DNA from: Halobacteria archaeon
Lineage (GTDB): Archaea; Methanobacteriota_B; Thermococci; Methanofastidiosales; NM3
Reading direction: 5' to 3'
Length of the DNA stretch: 64,000 nt
Assembly: GCA_036733165.1 (NCBI GenBank)
Contig: DAINBB010000003.1
Span: 7,546-71,545, forward strand
In this document: positions 24,092 to 34,442 of the stretch, piece after piece
How positions within the stretch are numbered: position 1 is the first letter of the stretch
Layout of the letters: each line of letters starts with the position of its first letter
The notes under the pieces: generated by a model
What the model saw: the letters and a program-made list of their open reading frames with translations, nothing else
The model's database searches: none
Told to the model about the DNA's origin: nothing
Translations under genes and position numbers: made by a program

Positions 24092-24166
24092 GCTCCGATA
24101 GTGTAGTCCGGTCAATCATCCAGCCCTCTCGAGGCTGAGACCCGGGTTCGAATCCCGGTCGGAGCA
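24092..24166 (+). tRNA. tRNA-Glu (anticodon CUC), no encoded CCA
   Basis: Cloverleaf by eye: acceptor GCUCCGA/UCGGAGC, anticodon stem CAGCC/GGCUG with loop CU-CUC-GA, T-arm CCGGGTTCGAATCCCGG. Close to the archaeal tRNA-Glu consensus. Confidence 0.85.
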
Positions 24167-24174
24167 CTCACATT

Positions 24175-24408: not shown

Positions 24409-25158
24409 TCAGCTATCGTTCCTTTCCCTTACAAGCGCGCTTAGCGCCCTCAGTGTGGAAAATCCCTTTTCCGTGATCATGTAGTCTCCACGGTCATGCC
24501 TTTGCATTATCATCCCGGAACATTGAAGCTTCTGAAGGTGGAAAAGTAGGTTCCCTCCGTTAAGGTCCGTCATCCTTGAGATCTCCGAGAATGTCATTGT
24601 CCGCTTTGACAAGGCAAGCATTATCTGCATTCTCCTGTCATTTGCGATAGGTTCAAGGTATTCGTCAACTATGCCTTCAAGGTCGCCTATTGAAACGTCT
24701 AGGTCTTCCTGGCCCGCACCACTATATACGTCCAGTGAGCTAATGAGCCTCAAGTGCCTGTCGAAGATGTTCGACAGCTCTGTGGCACAGGTCTCACATT
24801 TGTCATAGGGCGCCTTGTCCTTTATCTCCATGATCAGGTCCTTTTTTATATCAGAGACCATGTCTTCGTTTTCTGCGTTGTCTATGATATCGATGTTTCT
24901 TTCGATAAGGTCCCTGAAATAATCGATGCACTTCGTCCTGTTGGGACATTCATTATCGATGTATCTGTTGAGGGACTCGTCGGAATTCTTCATGAGACTG
25001 TCGAGCATCCTCTCGCGCATCATGTCCCATGTGGCCTTCAGGACAACTTCGTAGTGTTTCTTATCGGTGGATTCCATATATCTTCTCAGTTCTTCCTGAA
25101 GACAATCCATCTTCTTGTCCATCTTTTCAAGCTTGTCATGGATTTCACCTTCGTTCAT
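24409..25158 (-). CDS. ArsR/SmtB-type wHTH transcriptional regulator with an N-terminal coiled-coil and Cys4 (CPNRTKC…CETC) region
   Basis: C-terminal RRMQIMLALSKRTMTFSEISRMTDLNGGNLLFHLQKLQCSGMIMQ is an ArsR-like HTH. Start set at M17 (ATG 25156-25158) with GGGTGA upstream. Confidence 0.6.
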   Translation of the reverse strand: MNEGEIHDKLEKMDKKMDCLQEELRRYMESTDKKHYEVVLKATWDMMRERMLDSLMKNSDESLNRYIDNECPNRTKCIDYFRDLIERNIDIIDNAENEDMVSDIKKDLIMEIKDKAPYDKCETCATELSNIFDRHLRLISSLDVYSGAGQEDLDVSIGDLEGIVDEYLEPIANDRRMQIMLALSKRTMTFSEISRMTDLNGGNLLFHLQKLQCSGMIMQRHDRGDYMITEKGFSTLRALSALVRERNDS

Positions 25159-25250
25159 TTGATTCACCCAGGTCTCAAAAATGTAGTTGGTATATTTTAA
25201 TAACAAAAAAATATATAAATATAACTGAATCTAATCATATCGGTGATACA

Positions 25251-25631
25251 ATGACCAAACTTACCAAGGAAGTAATCGATCTGCTCAATAAGGAACACCT
25301 TGTCTATGCCGCCACATCCTCAAAGGATGGTGTACCCAACGTGTCTCCGAAAGGCAGCATCACCGTGATCGACGAGGAAAAGCTTATTTTCGCTGAGATC
25401 GCATCCCCCCACACGATTGAGAACCTCAAGGCCAACCCCAAGATTTCCATGTACGTTCTGGACAGGGAATCGAACAAAGGATGCCAGATAAAGGGCACAT
25501 GCGTCTTGATGGATTCGGGCCCCATATTTGATAATGTGGCAAAGAAATTGAAGGAAATGATGCCCCAGCTTCCACCCACCAACTATGCGGTAATGGTGAA
25601 TGTTGAGGAGCTGTTCCCCTACAATCTATAA
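25251..25631 (+). CDS. Pyridoxamine 5'-phosphate oxidase-like FMN-binding split-barrel protein
   Basis: 126 aa from ATG 25251; VYAATSSKDGVPNVSPKGS pattern of the PNPOx-like family. Divergent from the ArsR gene. Confidence 0.6.
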   Translation: MTKLTKEVIDLLNKEHLVYAATSSKDGVPNVSPKGSITVIDEEKLIFAEIASPHTIENLKANPKISMYVLDRESNKGCQIKGTCVLMDSGPIFDNVAKKLKEMMPQLPPTNYAVMVNVEELFPYNL

Positions 25632-25634
25632 TTT

Positions 25635-26549
25635 TCACTCTCTTTTATTTTTTATCAGATACTCTGCTATTCCATATCCTTTCTTTCCATCATAGGTGTA
25701 TTCGGCAAGCGTTTCGTGCATTACGGACAATGTTTTCTTATCCTCGCTCATGAACGGCAGTTTGATGTTCTTGATGACCTTCGCGTCCACACTTCTTACT
25801 CTTCCCTCTGCGTCGGTCAGTTCCATCGTGAAGCTCTCCGGCGCACCATCGTCACCGAAGACGGTATCTATATTTGCGCCGATGATGGGGTGGTCTGTCC
25901 CATCTACATGGAAGAATCCAGCATCGACCTCCCCCTCGTCCACGATCAGTTTTGTGACGTTTAGGGCAAGCTTCTCTGAGAACTGCCCCGTCAACCATAT
26001 CCACATCCTGGGGGCGTTCCAGTCCCTGACCCCCCAACTGTGGTCCCTTTCCCCAAGACCATCGATCTCAAGGGTCTTTTCAAGCATCTCTATCTTCCCT
26101 GTGACCCTGCCAAACTGTTCGTAATGCTCAGACGCCACGGACCGGGACATCATTTCCTTGGGTCCGGTAACACATTTCCTGTAATCGAACATGTCGTTGA
26201 GGGCATTGAACTCTAGGTCGAGCTTCACGTCAATATATTCCAGAGTCTTGCACGAGACGACCTTCATGTCCCCTTCGTATGTCATCTTCCATCTCTTCTC
26301 TGCCTCAAGCTTCTCGTATTTCAATCCGTTTGTTTCCATCCCGTTGTGGTATATGTGCCCGTAGGCCCTCTTCCCTGCGACGATATGCGGGGTCGAGATG
26401 TAGCAGAACATGTTCTTCTCCTTTTTGTTGGGTCTCAACCCCATTCTCATGAATGCATAGGAATCATTGTCCTTATCATAAAAACTAAAATAGAAGCTCT
26501 CGTTCCATTCAGGTTCGCTGTTCGGTTCATGCAAAACATCTGTGTCCAT
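25635..26549 (-). CDS. Hypothetical protein (304 aa), translationally coupled downstream of the PEP-utilizing enzyme
   Basis: Start at MDTDVLHEPN (ATG 26547-26549) with GGAGTGA 8 nt upstream and only 4 nt after the upstream stop. No motif recognised. Confidence 0.5.
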   Translation of the reverse strand: MDTDVLHEPNSEPEWNESFYFSFYDKDNDSYAFMRMGLRPNKKEKNMFCYISTPHIVAGKRAYGHIYHNGMETNGLKYEKLEAEKRWKMTYEGDMKVVSCKTLEYIDVKLDLEFNALNDMFDYRKCVTGPKEMMSRSVASEHYEQFGRVTGKIEMLEKTLEIDGLGERDHSWGVRDWNAPRMWIWLTGQFSEKLALNVTKLIVDEGEVDAGFFHVDGTDHPIIGANIDTVFGDDGAPESFTMELTDAEGRVRSVDAKVIKNIKLPFMSEDKKTLSVMHETLAEYTYDGKKGYGIAEYLIKNKRE

Positions 26550-26553
26550 ATTA

Positions 26554-29187
26554 TCACTCCTCAAGATAAATAACTCCTTCATTACCGTCCAATGTGATCT
26601 TCTGCCCGTTCTTAAAAAAAGATGTTGCGTTCTTGACCGCGGTGACCGCCGGTATGCCATATTCCCTTGAGACCACGGCGCCATGTGAGAGTATTCCTCC
26701 CGTCTCCGTTATCAATCCGCCAAGTTTGGCGAAGATGGGCGTCCATCCCGGGTCCGTGTTCGAAGTGACCAGAATCTCGTCATCGTTGACAGATGGCAAC
26801 TGTTCGATGGATTCCACCACCCTTGCATATCCTGTGACTATGCCCGGGCTCGCCGATGTCCCTATGATCTTCACGACATCCTTGTCGTACATCACGGTGT
26901 CGTCGAACTCTGTCCTCCCCTTGAGGAACTTTGGTGGGAGCTTGTACCTGTTCTTCTCGAACTCCCCCCGTCTGGACTTTATGTGTCGTAGGGCGGCCCT
27001 GCTGCCACCGGCCGCGATTGAGAAGACCTCCTCCCTGGACAGAAAGAAAACGTCTTCAATAGAGTCTGTCAGTCCTTCTTCATGGAAGCGCCTGCCATAC
27101 TCGAGAAAGAGCCTTCTGGTCCTACAGAGGATGTGGTCGAGATAGAACCTCTGATTCTCCCTGAATATCAGGTATGTCTGAGCATATCTCAAAACGACAT
27201 TGAAGATTCTCTTCCTGAAGAAACCCATCGGCATCTTGCCAATCCTTTCGTCTATAAGTTTCTGGACCTCCAGTCTCTCCATTACATTTTTCTGCTCGAT
27301 CTCCTCAAAATCAATAGGTTGGGATCCAACAAGGGACCTGAGTATATCTATCACGAGACCTTGGTCCTCTGACCACCTTGGGAAGAGGATCTCCCTGGTA
27401 TGTGACCTATGGCCATATTCATCGATAAATCCCTGATAGTGCAGATATTGTGGTCTTCCCCTAAGTGTCTCGAGAAACTCTTCTTCTCCGCCATCTATCA
27501 AGGCCTTCGTCAAATCTTCGTCTTTCCTTATCATATCGGCAAGCCTGGCAATGGCCATGTTGGTCAATATCGTCTTGTTGTCTGGCAGGCCTGATATCAA
27601 CTTGGAGTACAGTTCGCCTGTTGAGTCGTCCAACCAATCCACCAACCATCTCTTGACCATAAGGTTGGTGCCTATGCTGTGGGTGACCATTCCGTACCTT
27701 ATCAGCCTGAAGTGCTTTAAGAATGCGCACTCCATGTAGTCGTACTGTGCCTTGAGCTCCTCGAAAGATAGCTTGCCGAGGTCCGTCCTGTCGTATGCCT
27801 CCATGGCGGCAAGAAAGTTCTCCGTCCATTCCCTGTATGCCTTGTCGGTCTTCATCATGCTTCCGTCAGGGTCTTTTAGCATGATCCTGATCTCTGCCCA
27901 GAGCCTTCTGAGGGTCTTCGTCTTGGCATTTGCGATCCTGTCCTGGTCCTTTATCGGAAAATAGTTGAGAAGTTCCTTTGTCCTTGAGAACCTTGGATTG
28001 AACGTGAACACTTCCTCAAGTACCTTTGAGTTGAAGTAGATGTGCCCCTTATGGAGCTTTAGTAGCTTAAGGTCCGTCAGTTCCTTGTATCCCATTATCT
28101 CGGAACCCTCATCGTTCACATACCTTGTGAGATAATGCCCAAGAAATGAAAAGAACAGCGGGGAAGTGGCATCGGCCCAGTATTCATCACCGTATGCCCT
28201 TGTCCACAATATATCCCCTCCGTCCCCGAGCGTTGTGATGGGGCGGGACTGAAGCAGCAGTATGGAACCATCCTCTATAGACCATTCTATGTCCTGCGGG
28301 CCGTCGAAATGATCCTCTATCCTCCTTCCAAAATCCAATAGTTCCATTATCTGCTCTTCCGATAGCGAGGATGACTCTTGTCTTCCTCGATCTATCGTTA
28401 CCGCTTCGTTTCCTGAATCGGAGAGGAATATGCCCCTTTCTTTCCTGTTGATCTTTTTCTCAACAATACTGCGACTTTCAAGGTCTATTACAAACCTGTC
28501 AGGGGTTACCAATCCAGATACTATCGACTCTCCCAGGCCCCAACTGGATTCGATGATGGCCCTTTTGCCGTTCTTGTCAACAGGGTCCCTGGTGAACATT
28601 ACGCCCGAGACATCGGAGTCCACCATCCTTTGGACGATGACTGCGACACCCCCCTCCGTGTGGGAAATGCCTGCGTAATGCCTGTACGACATGGCCCTCT
28701 CGTTCCAATATGATGCCCAACATCTCTTGATCGCACCCAGGACCGACTTGTCATCGACATTGAGAAATGTGTCCTGTTGTCCGGCAAAAGATGCTTCCGG
28801 AAGGTCCTCTGCGACAGCAGATGATCTTATGGCCCAAACTGTTCCGTCTGCAGATTCCCGTATCAGGCCCTCTATCTCATCTACGATACCTTTCCCGATG
28901 GCCGGAGCGGTGATCATCTCCCGTATGGCGTCCGAGCACATCTTTAGGGCGTTCTTGTCGTTCAGGTCGGCGTCCTGAAGCAAATCTGCTATTTTGCCGT
29001 CCAGGCCGTTTGACCCTATGAAGTCCAGGTACGCGTCCACTGTAACGACAAAGCCCCTGGGCACGGGGAATCCCCCTTCCAACAGCCTTATGAGATTGGC
29101 AGCCTTGCCCCCTACCTTGTTCAGGTCGCCCGATCTTGTTGTGTCAAGAGGTATACAATTGCTGTACATTCCATCACTTGCCAGCAT
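26554..29187 (-). CDS. PEP-utilizing enzyme with PPDK_N ATP-grasp N-terminal domain and C-terminal phosphohistidine swivel domain. It lacks the PEP/pyruvate-binding TIM-barrel domain, giving a rifampin-phosphotransferase-like architecture.
   Basis: N-terminus GGKAANLIRLLEGGFPVPRGFVVT (PPDK_N). Extreme C-terminus TSNTDPGWTPIFAKLGGLITETGGILSHGAVVSREYGIPAV (mobile His domain). 877 aa. Confidence 0.75.
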   Translation of the reverse strand: MLASDGMYSNCIPLDTTRSGDLNKVGGKAANLIRLLEGGFPVPRGFVVTVDAYLDFIGSNGLDGKIADLLQDADLNDKNALKMCSDAIREMITAPAIGKGIVDEIEGLIRESADGTVWAIRSSAVAEDLPEASFAGQQDTFLNVDDKSVLGAIKRCWASYWNERAMSYRHYAGISHTEGGVAVIVQRMVDSDVSGVMFTRDPVDKNGKRAIIESSWGLGESIVSGLVTPDRFVIDLESRSIVEKKINRKERGIFLSDSGNEAVTIDRGRQESSSLSEEQIMELLDFGRRIEDHFDGPQDIEWSIEDGSILLLQSRPITTLGDGGDILWTRAYGDEYWADATSPLFFSFLGHYLTRYVNDEGSEIMGYKELTDLKLLKLHKGHIYFNSKVLEEVFTFNPRFSRTKELLNYFPIKDQDRIANAKTKTLRRLWAEIRIMLKDPDGSMMKTDKAYREWTENFLAAMEAYDRTDLGKLSFEELKAQYDYMECAFLKHFRLIRYGMVTHSIGTNLMVKRWLVDWLDDSTGELYSKLISGLPDNKTILTNMAIARLADMIRKDEDLTKALIDGGEEEFLETLRGRPQYLHYQGFIDEYGHRSHTREILFPRWSEDQGLVIDILRSLVGSQPIDFEEIEQKNVMERLEVQKLIDERIGKMPMGFFRKRIFNVVLRYAQTYLIFRENQRFYLDHILCRTRRLFLEYGRRFHEEGLTDSIEDVFFLSREEVFSIAAGGSRAALRHIKSRRGEFEKNRYKLPPKFLKGRTEFDDTVMYDKDVVKIIGTSASPGIVTGYARVVESIEQLPSVNDDEILVTSNTDPGWTPIFAKLGGLITETGGILSHGAVVSREYGIPAVTAVKNATSFFKNGQKITLDGNEGVIYLEE

Positions 29188-29392
29188 TGATAGTAGATTA
29201 TCATTAAAATACGTTTTTCCATTTTTAAATGGTACCTAATAGGAAAAGTGAGGGGGTGGAAGGTGTCGAAGGTGGGAGGTTCCACATCCATTCCGTCGGC
29301 ATCGTGAATGAGGACGCCATACATTACCTGGTCGACAGGCGTTTTTGCATGATGGCGGAACAGATGGGGAAATATTCATTGGACCGAAAGGG

Positions 29393-31518: not shown

Positions 31519-32283
31519 CTACAGTTCCAGCTCCAGTGCAATGGGGCAATGGTCGCTGCCCATGACGTCAGAGAGCATGTAGGATGCCTTCACGTTGCCG
31601 ACAAGCCCCTTGCTGACATAGAAGTAGTCTAGCCTCCAACCGACGTTCCTTTCCCGTGCCCTTGTCTTGTAGTCCCACCAGCTGTAGTGTCCGCCTTCAT
31701 CGTTAAACAGTCTGAACGTGTCTACAAGCCCGTTCTCGATGAATCTGTCCAGCCATTCCCTCTCCTCTGGCAGGAATCCGGAGGCCATCTCGTTCTCTTT
31801 GGGTCTGGCGATGTCCTTTTCTGTGTGGGCGGTATTCACATCGCCGCATACCACCAAGTCCATCCCTTTTGACATCATGTCCTTGCACTGTTCGATGAAC
31901 ACCTTGTAAAAGTCCATTTTGTACTCCAGCCTCTCCTTGGACATCTTTCCGTTCGGAAAGTATATGTTCATAAGATGGAATCTGTCGTAATCGGCAACGA
32001 TTATCCTTCCTTCATCCTCGACATCACCGAAATAGAACGTTTTATTGACAGATGTTGGGGATTGCCTGGTGTATATCGCGACACCACTGTAACCTCTTCG
32101 CTCAGGATACGAGAAAATGGCATCATACCCTTCTATATATCTCAGGTCCAGGGGAAGCTGATCCTCATGGGACTTGGTCTCCTGGATGCAGAGGATGTCA
32201 GGCCCCACAGACCTGAACCATTCCAGAAATCCCTTCTTGTACACTGCCCTGAGGCCATTGACGTTCCATGAGACGATCTGCAT
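31519..32283 (-). CDS. xth: Exodeoxyribonuclease III (Xth/APE1 family)
   Basis: [13 protein letters not shown], …QETK…, SDHCP motifs; 254 aa. Confidence 0.85.
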
Positions 32284-32310
32284 TTGAATCAGAAAAGGAA
32301 AATGGAAAGG

Positions 32311-32946
32311 TCAATCGACCTTCTTGTAGCAGAACCACCAGTCCTTGCACTCGAGGCTGTCGTCCTTGAGCCTTTTCTCCGCTTCCTCGACAGTGGTCGC
32401 GGGCGGAACTATGGCCCTGCCGCCTATGAACTCGTTGTTCGGCCAGTTGGCGGGCGCGGCAACCTTGTTCTTGTCCGTGAACTGGAGCGCCTTGACTATC
32501 CTCACTATCTCATCGAGGTTTCTTCCGATCTCCTGTGGATAGTATAGTATTACCCTTATTATGCTGTTCGGGTCTACAACGAACACCGCCCTGACGGTGT
32601 TGGAACCCTTGTTTGGATGAAGCATTCCAAGCATCTTTGAAAGTTTCCCATGGTCGGCGATAACTGGGAAAGGTATCTTTACACCAAGATTCTCTTCTAT
32701 CCATTGGACCCACATGATGTGTGAGAATACTTGGTCTATCGAGAGCCCTATTAGTTCACAGTTGAGCTCCTTGAGTTCAGGCGCCTTCTTTGCGAACCCT
32801 GCAAACTCGGTAGTGCATACTGGAGTGAAGTCACCTGGGTGACTAAAAAGGATGAACCATTTTCCCGAATATTCATTGGGAAGTATCTTCCTTCCCATGG
32901 TAGTTACCACCTTGACCTCCGGGAACTTATCCCCGATGAGGGGCAT
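32311..32946 (-). CDS. Peroxiredoxin (1-Cys/Prx6-type thiol peroxidase)
   Basis: [19 protein letters not shown] peroxidatic Cys motif; start set at [10 protein letters not shown]. Confidence 0.85.
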
Positions 32947-33085
32947 GCTTCTTTCTTCTTCACACATTTCAATACCTCTTTTGATTTGTGATAATCGTTA
33001 TGTTGGGGGATTATAATAATTTTTTTCAGAAAAGCATTAAAAACTTGTAGAAAATATGAATACAAAGAAAAAAAGGAGGTATCTC

Positions 33086-33202
33086 ATGACGAAGGTAGGA
33101 GAAAAGTACATCTGCGACATATGCGGAAACGAGGTCGAGGTCGTCAAGGCCGGAGGCGGGACGCTTGTATGTTGCGGAGTAAAGATGAGACTTACAGATT
33201 AA
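33086..33202 (+). CDS. dsr: Desulforedoxin (37 aa), absent from the ORF track
   Basis: MTKVGEKYICDICGNEVEVVKAGGGTLVCCGVKMRLTD with the CxxC…GGGTLVCCG desulforedoxin signature. RBS GGAGGT 6 nt upstream. Confidence 0.7.
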   Translation: MTKVGEKYICDICGNEVEVVKAGGGTLVCCGVKMRLTD

Positions 33203-33208
33203 TCTGAG

Positions 33209-33225
33209 TCCATGCCCTGCATGGA
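33209..33225 (+). other. Short hairpin TCCATG-ccctg-CATGGA followed by a C/T-rich tract between dsr and fprA
   Basis: 6-bp inverted repeat read from sequence. Confidence 0.25.
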
Positions 33226-33251
33226 CCCTTCCCTTTTCAAGGGGGATCCCA

Positions 33252-34442
33252 ATGAACAAAATAGAGTTGAAGAACGGTATATACTGGGTCGGGGCTATAG
33301 ATTGGAATCTCCGCGATTTCCACGGATACAAAACGCCGAACGGGTCTACATATAATGCATATCTCGTAGTTGGCGAGAAGATTGCATTGATAGACACGGT
33401 GAAGAGACCTTTTCTGAACGACCTTGTTGAAAACATCAGGAACATAGTGGAACCTGAGAAGATCGATTATCTTATAGTAAACCATGTCGAGATGGACCAT
33501 TCAGGTTCATTCCCGGAGATCGTGAAACTGCTCAAGAACGCCCGCATTGTCGCCACCAAGGAGGGCAAGGAGGAACTTTTGAAGCACCACGGCAAGGATT
33601 ATGACATAACGGTCGTGGAGGACGGTGACACGATATCCCTGGGCAACAAGACCCTCAGATTCATAAAGACTCCGATGCTGCATTGGCCCGACTCGATGAT
33701 GACATATGTCCAGGAGGACAAGGTGATATTTACTTCGGACGCCTTTGGCCAACATTACGCCTCCACAGAAAGGTTCGACGACGAGCTTGACGAGAAGACG
33801 CTCTATGACGCGGCTGGGGAATACTATTCCAACATACTTTGGCTCTACAGCCCGCTTGTATCACGCCTGATCGAGAAGGTGATGGACATGGGCATCAAGC
33901 TGGAGATGGTGGCACCCGACCATGGCATAATATGGAGAAACGACCCGCATAAACCCATAAACTGGTATTGCGAGTGGGCAAATGGAAAGTCTGTGAACAA
34001 GGTGTTGCTGGTATATGAAACGATGTGGGGCTCCACGGAAAAGATGGCCAGGGCGATAGCCAAGGGAATAACAGACCAGGGAATGAACGTCAAGCTGATG
34101 AAGCTTAAGGAGACCGAATACAGCTACGTGATCAAGGAACTGCTCGGGTGCAGAGGCATACTTGTGGGCACACCTACCCTCAACAACAACATGTTCCCCT
34201 CCATGGGCGGTTTTCTGACATATCTTAAAGGGCTCAGGCCAAAGGGAAGGATAGGAGCGACCTTTGGTTCCTATGGCTGGGGCGGCGGTGCGTGCAAGGC
34301 CGCGGAGGAGATGCTGGACGAGGCGGGTGTCAGGATAGCGTTCCCGCCACTGGAGCTTAAATGGGTCCCTACGGCCGAAGAGCTCGAGGACTGTTACACC
34401 TTTGGAAAGGAGTTTGCATCTAAAGCTATGGAGAAGATATAG
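33252..34442 (+). CDS. fprA: Flavodiiron protein FprA (metallo-beta-lactamase-like diiron domain + flavodoxin domain)
   Basis: HVEMDHSGS (HxExDH) motif plus a C-terminal flavodoxin-like domain; 396 aa. Confidence 0.85.
   Translation: MNKIELKNGIYWVGAIDWNLRDFHGYKTPNGSTYNAYLVVGEKIALIDTVKRPFLNDLVENIRNIVEPEKIDYLIVNHVEMDHSGSFPEIVKLLKNARIVATKEGKEELLKHHGKDYDITVVEDGDTISLGNKTLRFIKTPMLHWPDSMMTYVQEDKVIFTSDAFGQHYASTERFDDELDEKTLYDAAGEYYSNILWLYSPLVSRLIEKVMDMGIKLEMVAPDHGIIWRNDPHKPINWYCEWANGKSVNKVLLVYETMWGSTEKMARAIAKGITDQGMNVKLMKLKETEYSYVIKELLGCRGILVGTPTLNNNMFPSMGGFLTYLKGLRPKGRIGATFGSYGWGGGACKAAEEMLDEAGVRIAFPPLELKWVPTAEELEDCYTFGKEFASKAMEKI

Follow-up and report, generated by a model that had tools for sequence, protein, structure and literature searches.

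The window analysed here is a 64-kb (64,000-nucleotide) stretch of archaeal DNA (contig DAINBB010000003.1, positions 7,546 to 71,545). On its reverse strand lie two adjoining genes, one encoding an 877-amino acid (aa) dikinase of the rifampin phosphotransferase (RPH) type and the other a 304-aa protein of the DUF7065/DUF7064 family, which is predicted to be a phosphate-eliminating lyase (Table 1). Both proteins are found in public databases in a metagenome-assembled genome of Candidatus Methanofastidiosa: the lyase is identical over its 304 aa to HPR41230.1 (named "hypothetical protein"), and the entry for the identical kinase, HPR41231.1, starts at Met7 and is 871 aa long (named "PEP/pyruvate-binding domain-containing protein"; PEP, phosphoenolpyruvate).

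The two genes are joined by a translational-coupling signature. The junction reads CTT GAG GAG TGA TAAT ATG GAC, in which GAGGAG (26557..26562) encodes the two C-terminal residues of the kinase and lies 7 nucleotides (nt) ahead of the lyase ATG (26547..26549), which itself follows the kinase TGA by 4 nt (TAAT). The 4-nt spacing and a good Shine-Dalgarno sequence had already been noted in an earlier reading of the same DNA made from its letters alone (hereafter the sequence-only reading), and both were found as described. A 349-aa lyase reading from an ATG at 26684, overlapping the kinase gene, was rejected; the 304-aa start is right because more than 100 homologues are 299-308 aa long and align from MDTD, and because the public copy HPR41230.1 has the same start. 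The dikinase gene is separated by a gap of 205 nt from the M18 aminopeptidase gene upstream, and the non-coding region in front of the pair, with TATA-like A/T-rich stretches visible by eye (ATTTAAAAAT, 29221..29230; ATTTTAATGATAAT, 29197..29210), is a candidate for an independent promoter of the two genes.

Table 1. Features of the dikinase-lyase locus (positions are those of the window).
Feature	Position	Strand	Basis
Dikinase gene, RPH-type, 877 aa	26554..29187	(-)	Open reading frame (ORF) list and translation; Pfam
Dikinase stop codon, TGA	26554..26556	(-)	
ATP-grasp (PPDK_N), kinase residues 23-322	28222..29121	(-)	Pfam PF01326
Middle domain, kinase residues 323-770; presumed acceptor-substrate-binding, counterpart of the rifampin (RIF)-binding domain	26878..28221	(-)	
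C-terminal phosphohistidine swivel domain, kinase residues 771-877	26557..26877	(-)	Pfam PF00391 match 801-871
Catalytic His835 codon	26683..26685	(-)	Alignment to RPH-Lm
Gene junction: GAGGAG, TGA, TAAT spacer	26550..26562	(-)	Sequence read directly
Lyase gene, DUF7065 + DUF7064, 304 aa; predicted phosphate-eliminating C-O lyase, 25-PSL-like	25635..26549	(-)	
Lyase motif R168-D169-H170-S171-W172-G173-V174-R175	26025..26048	(-)	HMMER alignments to 9fzn, 9g4c
Upstream non-coding region, candidate promoter for the two-gene unit	29188..29260	(-)	Read by eye

An RPH-type dikinase and a relative of 25-phosphosteroid lyase

Both dikinase domains are recognised in the kinase by Pfam at high significance (PF01326 PPDK_N, E = 4.8e-93; PF00391 PEP-utilizers, E = 8.8e-24), Pfam finds no PEP-utilizers_C barrel (PF02896) with the threshold relaxed to E<=1, and only 6 residues follow the mobile domain. 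For the middle part, the precomputed Pfam entry of a 100%-identical public protein (P0121) lists PF27448 (Rph_4th). The order ATP-grasp, Rph_4th acceptor domain, C-terminal swivel domain is that of the RPH-type superfamily, and so are the catalytic signatures, namely a His in a GG..(S/T)H motif near the C-terminus and the "block 9" Arg-Glu pair. The closest PDB relatives are Listeria RPH structures (5fbs, 5hv1, 5hv2; E about 6e-97), and true PEP synthases and pyruvate phosphate dikinases (PPDKs) match in the PDB search solely via the shared ATP-grasp and swivel domains. The phmmer alignment to Listeria RPH (RPH-Lm, 5fbs) covers two stretches, residues 24-348 and 513-874, with residues 349-512 of the middle domain unaligned. 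The best structural match of the predicted model (pLDDT 87) of a fusion homologue 56% identical to the kinase is full-length RPH-Lm 5hv1 (Foldseek E 4.5e-42, about 900 aligned columns), with about 22-27% identity in the Foldseek alignments.

The residues whose roles have been described for RPH-Lm (PMC4844700) are retained: H835, T539, R676/E677, and R121 of the kinase correspond to His825, Thr523, Arg666/Glu667, and Arg117, respectively, all five are invariant among 38 homologues, and the kinase segment GGILSHGAVVSREYG lines up with GGLMTHGAVIAREYG of RPH-Lm, which holds His825. The sequence-only reading, which had placed PPDK_N at the N-terminus and the swivel domain at the extreme C-terminus of an 877-aa protein, had seen no TIM barrel, and had called this the RPH layout, thus agrees both with the Pfam layout (PF01326 and PF00391 present, PF02896 not) and with the alignment to RPH structures. 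It had also warned that such proteins are mis-annotated as PEP synthase, and homologues of the kinase do bear the names "pyruvate,water dikinase", "putative phosphoenolpyruvate synthase", and "phosphoenolpyruvate protein kinase". RPH-like "PEP synthases" rank among the most common mis-annotated archaeal enzymes, and we know of none from archaea whose substrate there is known.

The name rifampin phosphotransferase is nonetheless unsuitable because the kinase fails the curated NCBIfam cut-offs for RPH (NF041857, 451.5 vs. 999 bits; NF000283, 332.1 vs. 1700 bits), PigC (382.8 vs. 1300 bits), and RedH (408 vs. 1350 bits), the last two by about threefold, and its identity to RPH-Lm is below the >42% that defines RPH clade A (PMC4844700). 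The window kinase is RPH-like in architecture only. The RPH acceptor site is hydrophobic, and distant clades, including archaeal ones, have been predicted to keep phosphotransferase activity toward other substrates (PMC4844700). Within the archaeal clade the middle domain is conserved at least as well as the ATP-grasp domain (mean 0.67 vs. 0.60) and has 88 invariant columns, which argues for one defined substrate.

The partner protein had been left as unknown by the sequence-only reading. It is, however, not fully unknown, being a DUF7065/DUF7064 homologue of 25-phosphosteroid lyase (25-PSL). Both Pfam domains score above their gathering thresholds and stand in the right order (PF23213, residues 4-175, E 6.9e-21, 75.6 bits, cut-off 27; PF23212, residues 177-298, E 2e-19, 70.6 bits, cut-off 24.7). 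Its sole sequence relative in the PDB is 25-PSL (9fzn, 9g2i, 9g4c), with E 5e-4 for the single sequence and 6.5e-13 (9fzn) for a 32-sequence profile. The AlphaFold2 model (pLDDT 91, pTM 0.90) is all-beta with two domains, and its top five Foldseek matches are all 25-PSL chains (E 1e-15, TM 0.68-0.73), followed by the decalin Diels-Alderases CghA, Fsa2, and Phm7, and then by AttH NE1406 and kievitone hydratase.

In addition to this fold, the motif RDxSWGxR is common to the two proteins (G-E-R168-D169-H-S-W-G-V-R175 in the partner, L-G-S-R-D-R-S-W-G-V-R in 25-PSL). When archaeal members are aligned with six distant ones and a 25-PSL fragment, H7, Y20, F21, G37, Q145, G151, G166, R168, D169, S171, W172, G173, and R175 are invariant. 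Within the regions aligned by HMMER, 9g4c differs from 9fzn only by an Asp-to-Asn replacement at the equivalent of D169 (LGSRDRSWGVR vs. LGSRNRSWGVR), and the title of 9g4c describes the lyase with phosphate and alkene product; the roles of 25-PSL residues are taken here from the titles and sequences of the PDB entries. The literature searched on the function of DUF7065, DUF7064, or Rv3169 gave nothing relevant.

Conservation of the pair and the wider DUF7065/64 family

Of 429 relatives found by a genome scan, the best 80 were kept, all of them archaeal. In 81 of the 84 related archaeal loci, tblastn places the kinase gene immediately in front of the lyase gene and in the same orientation (five of the 81 are kinase remnants), and in most related loci the order is head-to-tail with tblastn matches 8-20 nt apart. 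The pair occurs in at least five lineages (Methanofastidiosa, Methanomassiliicoccales/Thermoplasmata, Methanocella, Methanomethylicia, and Conexivisphaerales); four loci inspected from different lineages each show kinase then lyase between unrelated flanks. Among the top kinase homologues, 11 or more protein clusters are natural fusions with all the domains in one chain (1119-1228 aa), and these keep the order of the genes: in P0162, residues 14-872 correspond to the kinase (56% identity) and 879-1172 to the lyase (49%). The two proteins co-evolve, the pairwise identities of kinase and lyase over 46 loci being correlated with r = 0.865, a value reached by 0 of 999 Mantel permutations. Chance is ruled out for this observation by the E-values and by the recurrence of the pair over 84 loci. 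The two-gene module proposed in the sequence-only reading from the 4-nt spacing therefore stands on much broader ground, namely synteny, fusions, and co-evolution.

Clustering of all neighbouring ORFs of 85 loci revealed no third conserved gene. NAD kinase, ribosomal protein S15, Kae1, fibrillarin, and the inositol-monophosphatase-like and DHH phosphoesterase genes were rejected as partners, as they reflect housekeeping synteny within Methanomassiliicoccales. The MatE, ArsR-type helix-turn-helix (HTH), PNPOx-like, and M18 aminopeptidase genes of the window were likewise rejected as pathway partners, since none recurs elsewhere. A defence system was rejected, as PADLOC gave no match for either the kinase or the lyase.

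Kinase remnants stand beside an intact lyase in some Methanofastidiosum and Methanomassiliicoccales genomes (L011:5562-5954, L018:4961-5998, L054:5125-5628, L058:5466-5951); that of L011 is a 130-aa protein in which the first ~80 kinase residues are joined to the last ~40, and that of L018 is a 345-aa C-terminal piece. In L030, L051, and L063 the lyase occurs without any kinase. Such loci reflect either kinase-independent use of the lyase or modules in decay.

The DUF7065/64 profile matches 2215 clusters at 50% identity (E<=1e-3), and a kinase adjoins six of seven distant DUF7065/64 genes. Two unrelated kinase types are involved, RPH-like dikinases (L085, L086, L090, L092) and kinases of the aminoglycoside phosphotransferase (APH) type (L087, L089), the latter with PDB matches to Rv3168 (3ats/3att) and to the kinase domain of ACAD11. 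The recruitment of two unrelated kinase types is expected if the lyase needs a phosphorylated substrate. The seventh gene (L088) has no kinase within 5 kb and is surrounded by Mce4, FadB-like, and thiolase genes. At the genomic level, then, kinase and lyase are functionally coupled, through their adjacency, fusions, and co-evolution and through the kinases beside distant family members.

The distant loci vary in organisation. In L085 (392-4960), a 1522-aa RPH-like protein with duplicated Rph_4th and swivel domains (order PPDK_N, Rph_4th, PEP-utilizers, Rph_4th, PEP-utilizers) is encoded directly upstream of a 364-aa DUF7065/64 gene, with genes for a fumarate-reductase-like flavoprotein and a Fer2_3 protein downstream, and in L086 the DUF7065/64 gene is paired with a split, HpeH-like Rph_4th-swivel protein. 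In L090 (3030-7035) and L092 (470-4330) the order is reversed, the lyase gene coming first and overlapping by 4 nt the start of a 738-774-aa RPH-like kinase; a divergent HTH_10 regulator gene upstream suggests a haloarchaeal-type regulated operon. The APH-type kinase of L089 matches PDB entries 9fsg, 9ft5, and 9fu5 (E 3.7e-15), a 379-aa "aminoglycoside phosphotransferase-like protein" whose codes are close to the 25-PSL entries and which may be the 25-hydroxysteroid kinase (25-HSK), a point on which the entry name is silent.

Bacterial DUF7065/64 genes lie in lipid/steroid-type catabolic settings (L086:5353-6576, L087:1-3269, L088:6066-10960, L089:1933-7656) with genes for a geranylgeranyl-reductase-like flavoprotein, patatin, WS/DGAT wax-ester synthases, FadB-like protein, thiolase, Mce4, acyl-CoA dehydrogenase, acyl-CoA ligase, and luciferase-like monooxygenases, and hydrophobic substrates would therefore be fitting for the family. 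Two complete high-GC proteins of 766-801 aa (P0261, P0283; contig of 4965 bp) join PPDK_N by a low-complexity linker to DUF7065/64 and have neither swivel nor Rph_4th domain; their ATP-grasp motifs look degenerate (RSSIAVRDRPEVFLPTQPEF for RSSAVAEDLPEASFAGQQDT), and genes for Fer4 and CCG-domain proteins follow. An apparent architecture of swivel domain plus DUF7065/64 (P0381) was rejected as a fusion fragment, its gene beginning at base 1 of a 1.4-kb contig.

In the window, the lyase gene is faced by a convergent PNPOx-like (split-barrel, flavin mononucleotide-binding) ORF (25029-25631, forward strand), whose end lies 4 nt from the lyase stop codon. Counted from its first ATG, this ORF overlaps by 178 nt the gene of an ArsR/HTH_5-type regulator (24409-25206, reverse strand), so that translation probably begins further downstream; neither of the two genes is found beside the pair at other loci. 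No RNA gene other than a tRNA-Glu (CTC) gene (24092-24167, forward strand), between the MatE and ArsR-type genes, was found in the window. In 17 of 85 loci, which come from several lineages and are not phylogenetically independent, genes of oxidative stress or repair lie no more than 6 kb from the pair (1-Cys peroxiredoxin, desulfoferrodoxin, Fe-superoxide dismutase, hemerythrin, and Ogg; L002, L003, L022, L024-L029, L050, L052, and 31519-34442 of the window, where a flavodiiron protein and an Xth-like nuclease are also encoded). This neighbourhood may reflect a repair or stress role or chance clustering in anaerobes; it is suggestive and was not used as evidence.

Proposed reaction and its alternatives

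We consider it moderately likely that the two proteins together, with no other partner, carry out an ATP-dependent dehydration in two steps, or in broader terms a C-O cleavage activated by phosphate, and that they act on a small hydroxylated molecule, probably a hydrophobic one. The sequence-only reading had spoken of a phosphorylation or modification module, and the homology of the partner to 25-PSL sharpens this to phosphorylation followed by phosphate elimination. We infer the chemistry from the RPH swivel mechanism, ATP -> AMP + Pi + phosphoester (PMC4844700), and from the kinase-then-lyase logic that has been established experimentally for 25-HSK/25-PSL (PMC8449060, PMC11061730) and has an analogue, kinase plus elimination, in ACAD10/11 (PMC12440821, PMC11342911). 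In the kinase step, the ATP-grasp domain would pyrophosphorylate His835 of the swivel domain, the gamma-phosphate leaving as Pi, and the swivel domain would then move to the middle domain with the beta-phosphate, whose transfer to the substrate hydroxyl would be aided there by T539, R676, and E677 (net, ATP + H2O + R-OH -> AMP + Pi + R-O-PO3). In the lyase step, the 304-aa double beta-barrel protein would bind the phosphoester and eliminate phosphate to give an alkene, probably with the conserved residues H7, Y20, H142, Q145, R168-D169-x-S171-W172-G173-x-R175, and E296.

Such a scheme would spend two phosphoanhydride bonds and should make the phosphorylation irreversible, as opposed to the near-equilibrium expected for tertiary alcohols with an ADP-forming kinase. 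In anaerobic cholesterol degradation, phosphorylation of the tertiary C25 alcohol by 25-HSK is indeed fully reversible, because the group-transfer potential of the tertiary phosphoester is similar to ATP's (PMC8449060), and an AMP-forming dikinase would lift this thermodynamic limit. A hydrophobic alcohol is the most likely substrate, given that proteins of the lyase fold family enclose hydrophobic molecules, that RPH binds its acceptor in a hydrophobic site, and that the bacterial relatives lie in lipid-related settings. The pair is patchily distributed, its kinase is decayed in places, orphan lyases occur, and no third gene is conserved, all of which points to an accessory function in salvage, catabolism, or repair and away from a core pathway.

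Several points weigh against this interpretation. The reaction proposed for the clade derives from homology, and the partner is only distantly related to 25-PSL (about 18% identity). It scores 67.4 bits on NCBIfam NF053593 (Rv3169_fam), below the cut-off of 150, and a 164-residue fragment of 25-PSL alone reaches 237.8 bits; the partner therefore belongs to a sister subfamily, and its relationship to 25-PSL is one at the superfamily level. What the motif Asp would do in catalysis is read from a deposited variant, and hydratases and pericyclases also occur in the lyase fold superfamily, so that the chemistry could differ. In the kinase, E335 of the archaeal clade replaces Gln337 of RPH, a phosphate ligand. 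The decayed or missing kinases (L011, L018, L054, L058, L030, L051, L063) mean that the lyase may be useful alone, and the kinase and lyase genes of Sterolibacterium are non-adjacent, unlike those of the window.

Because the best-characterised relatives of the kinase are resistance and scavenging dikinases, RPH (PMC4844700) and HpeHI (PMC12167813), the kinase might by itself detoxify a hydroxylated xenobiotic or antibiotic, with the 304-aa protein as an accessory binder or a second step; the MatE efflux gene and the ArsR-type regulator near the pair, the patchy distribution, and some decayed kinases would fit. We regard this as unlikely: the two neighbours are not conserved, PADLOC finds nothing, the RPH model is missed by a wide margin, the middle-domain columns invariant over distant archaeal phyla fit one substrate and not varied xenobiotics, and phosphorylation alone leaves the obligatory partner and the fusions unexplained. 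A similarly low probability is given to a phosphate-activated substitution or cyclisation, in which the phosphate would leave and the carbocation or electrophile would be captured by condensation, cyclisation, or rearrangement. PigC, RedH, and HapC of the RPH family do use phospho-activation for condensation (cf. PMC13534948), the kinase aligns with the RedH model end to end in one stretch (408 bits), and the fold neighbours of the lyase include decalin-forming Diels-Alderases. On the other hand, the PigC and RedH cut-offs are not reached, PigC-type enzymes work without a partner protein, and the lyase has sequence-level homology to 25-PSL only, the pericyclases being related by fold alone (7-11% identity).

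The order of events could also be the reverse, a CrtC- or kievitone hydratase-like protein hydrating a double bond and the dikinase then phosphorylating the new alcohol as the end product. Gene order is uninformative on this, and kievitone hydratase and AttH are among the fold neighbours (E 1e-7 to 3e-9), but we think this improbable given that Pfam finds no CrtC or AttH match at E<=1, that the specific sequence relative is the phosphate-eliminating 25-PSL with its shared RDxSWGxR motif, and that the homologue in 9g4c holds phosphate and alkene. That the kinase is a genuine PEP synthase (pyruvate, water dikinase) serving gluconeogenesis, as the shared PPDK_N and mobile domains, the database names, and partial NCBIfam PEP_synth matches might suggest, is next to impossible. 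It is refuted by the architecture: there is no TIM barrel, and the His domain, which is central in PEP synthases and PPDKs, lies at 801-871 of 877 residues. The PEP synthase equivalogs are missed (TIGR01418, 404.5 vs. 739.75 bits; NF005057, 410.2 vs. 598 bits), with two partial stretches limited to the shared domains, and so by a wide margin are all PRK06241 "PEP synthase" subfamilies in NCBIfam; RPH enzymes do not take pyruvate (PMC4844700).

Returning to phosphorylation followed by elimination, we put forward as a tentative and rather doubtful extension that the pair represents a hitherto unrecognised dikinase-lyase dehydratase, widespread in archaea, whose substrate is endogenous, for example an isoprenoid lipid with an alcohol that is tertiary or for other reasons unreactive, or a metabolite damaged by hydration or hydroxylation, and whose role is in lipid remodelling or metabolite repair.

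Significance and comparison with known systems

RPH-family dikinases and the kinase/lyase strategy of dehydration are each already known. In the literature searched, we found neither a combination of a dikinase with a lyase, nor its conservation or fusion in archaea, nor a proposal that DUF7065/64 proteins are kinase-coupled phosphoester lyases. The link to a 25-PSL-like lyase gives the archaeal RPH-like clade a concrete reaction scheme and proposes a function for two Pfam domains of unknown function that cover thousands of protein clusters. Dehydration via phosphoesters is established so far for the degradation of steroids by anaerobes and for the catabolism of 4-hydroxy acids; the present results suggest that ATP-dependent dehydration of this kind is a general, modular strategy with interchangeable kinases. 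If the proposal is true, this would be the first AMP-forming dikinase, instead of an ordinary kinase, to drive phosphate-elimination chemistry, and the large DUF7065/DUF7064 family, with its 2215 clusters, would consist of phosphoester lyases that recruit available kinase types. With an endogenous substrate, it would provide the first physiological role of an RPH-family dikinase in archaea; should that substrate prove to be a damaged cofactor or a lipid of the archaeal cell, the pair would open up an unexplored part of repair or membrane biochemistry in archaea. The single-chain natural fusions are ready material for structural and enzymological study.

By fold, the lyase resembles AttH/CrtC/kievitone hydratase and the decalin Diels-Alderases (2ICH, 7A0T, 6KAW, 7E5T), which have the same two-domain beta-barrel (Foldseek E 1e-7 to 5e-10). 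The likeness is confined to the fold, with 7-12% identity and no Pfam or sequence match, and to our knowledge no phosphate chemistry is known for these proteins.

The kinase shares its superfamily and swivel-His mechanism with HpeHI, CreHI, and PpsAB, which act on small hydroxylated (phenolic) substrates (PMC12167813), and HpeI (9goj) is a PDB match for its ATP-grasp domain. Unlike the window kinase, these systems consist of two separate proteins, have phenols as substrates, and lead on to carboxylases or to other steps, not to a phosphate lyase. PigC, RedH, and HapC have the architecture of the window kinase and use phospho-activated oxygen as the leaving group, whereas their follow-up chemistry is done by the same enzyme without a partner protein. 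RPH-Lm (PDB 5FBS/5HV1; PMC4844700) has the same three-domain order, with a large and helical acceptor-binding domain in the middle, and its catalytic His, Arg-Glu pair, Thr523, and Arg117 are kept, so that the same stoichiometry (ATP -> AMP + Pi + phosphoester) may be expected. It differs in that identity is about 25% and in that the window system is archaeal and has an obligatory downstream or fused lyase, which RPH is without.

In ACAD10/ACAD11 and the bacterial Lva-type systems (PMC12440821, PMC11342911), a 4-hydroxyacyl-CoA kinase is fused or coupled to a phosphate-eliminating enzyme, with the net result of an ATP-dependent dehydration of a lipid alcohol. Both folds (APH kinase and acyl-CoA dehydrogenase) are unlike those of the window proteins, and this is thus analogy and not homology. 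The closest counterpart in logic is 25-HSK/25-PSL of Sterolibacterium denitrificans (PMC8449060; PDB 9FZN, 9G2I, 9G4C), in which the same sequence of steps as proposed here is served by a homologous lyase sharing the RDxSWGxR and C-terminal E...GYG..E motifs. 25-PSL is a 362-aa protein with extra insertions and an Rv3169_fam member, which the window lyase is not, and sterols are an unlikely substrate in these archaea. The kinases are unrelated: 25-HSK is a roughly 40-kDa, ADP-forming enzyme of a phosphotransferase family with a fully reversible reaction, whereas the window kinase would be an AMP-forming dikinase.

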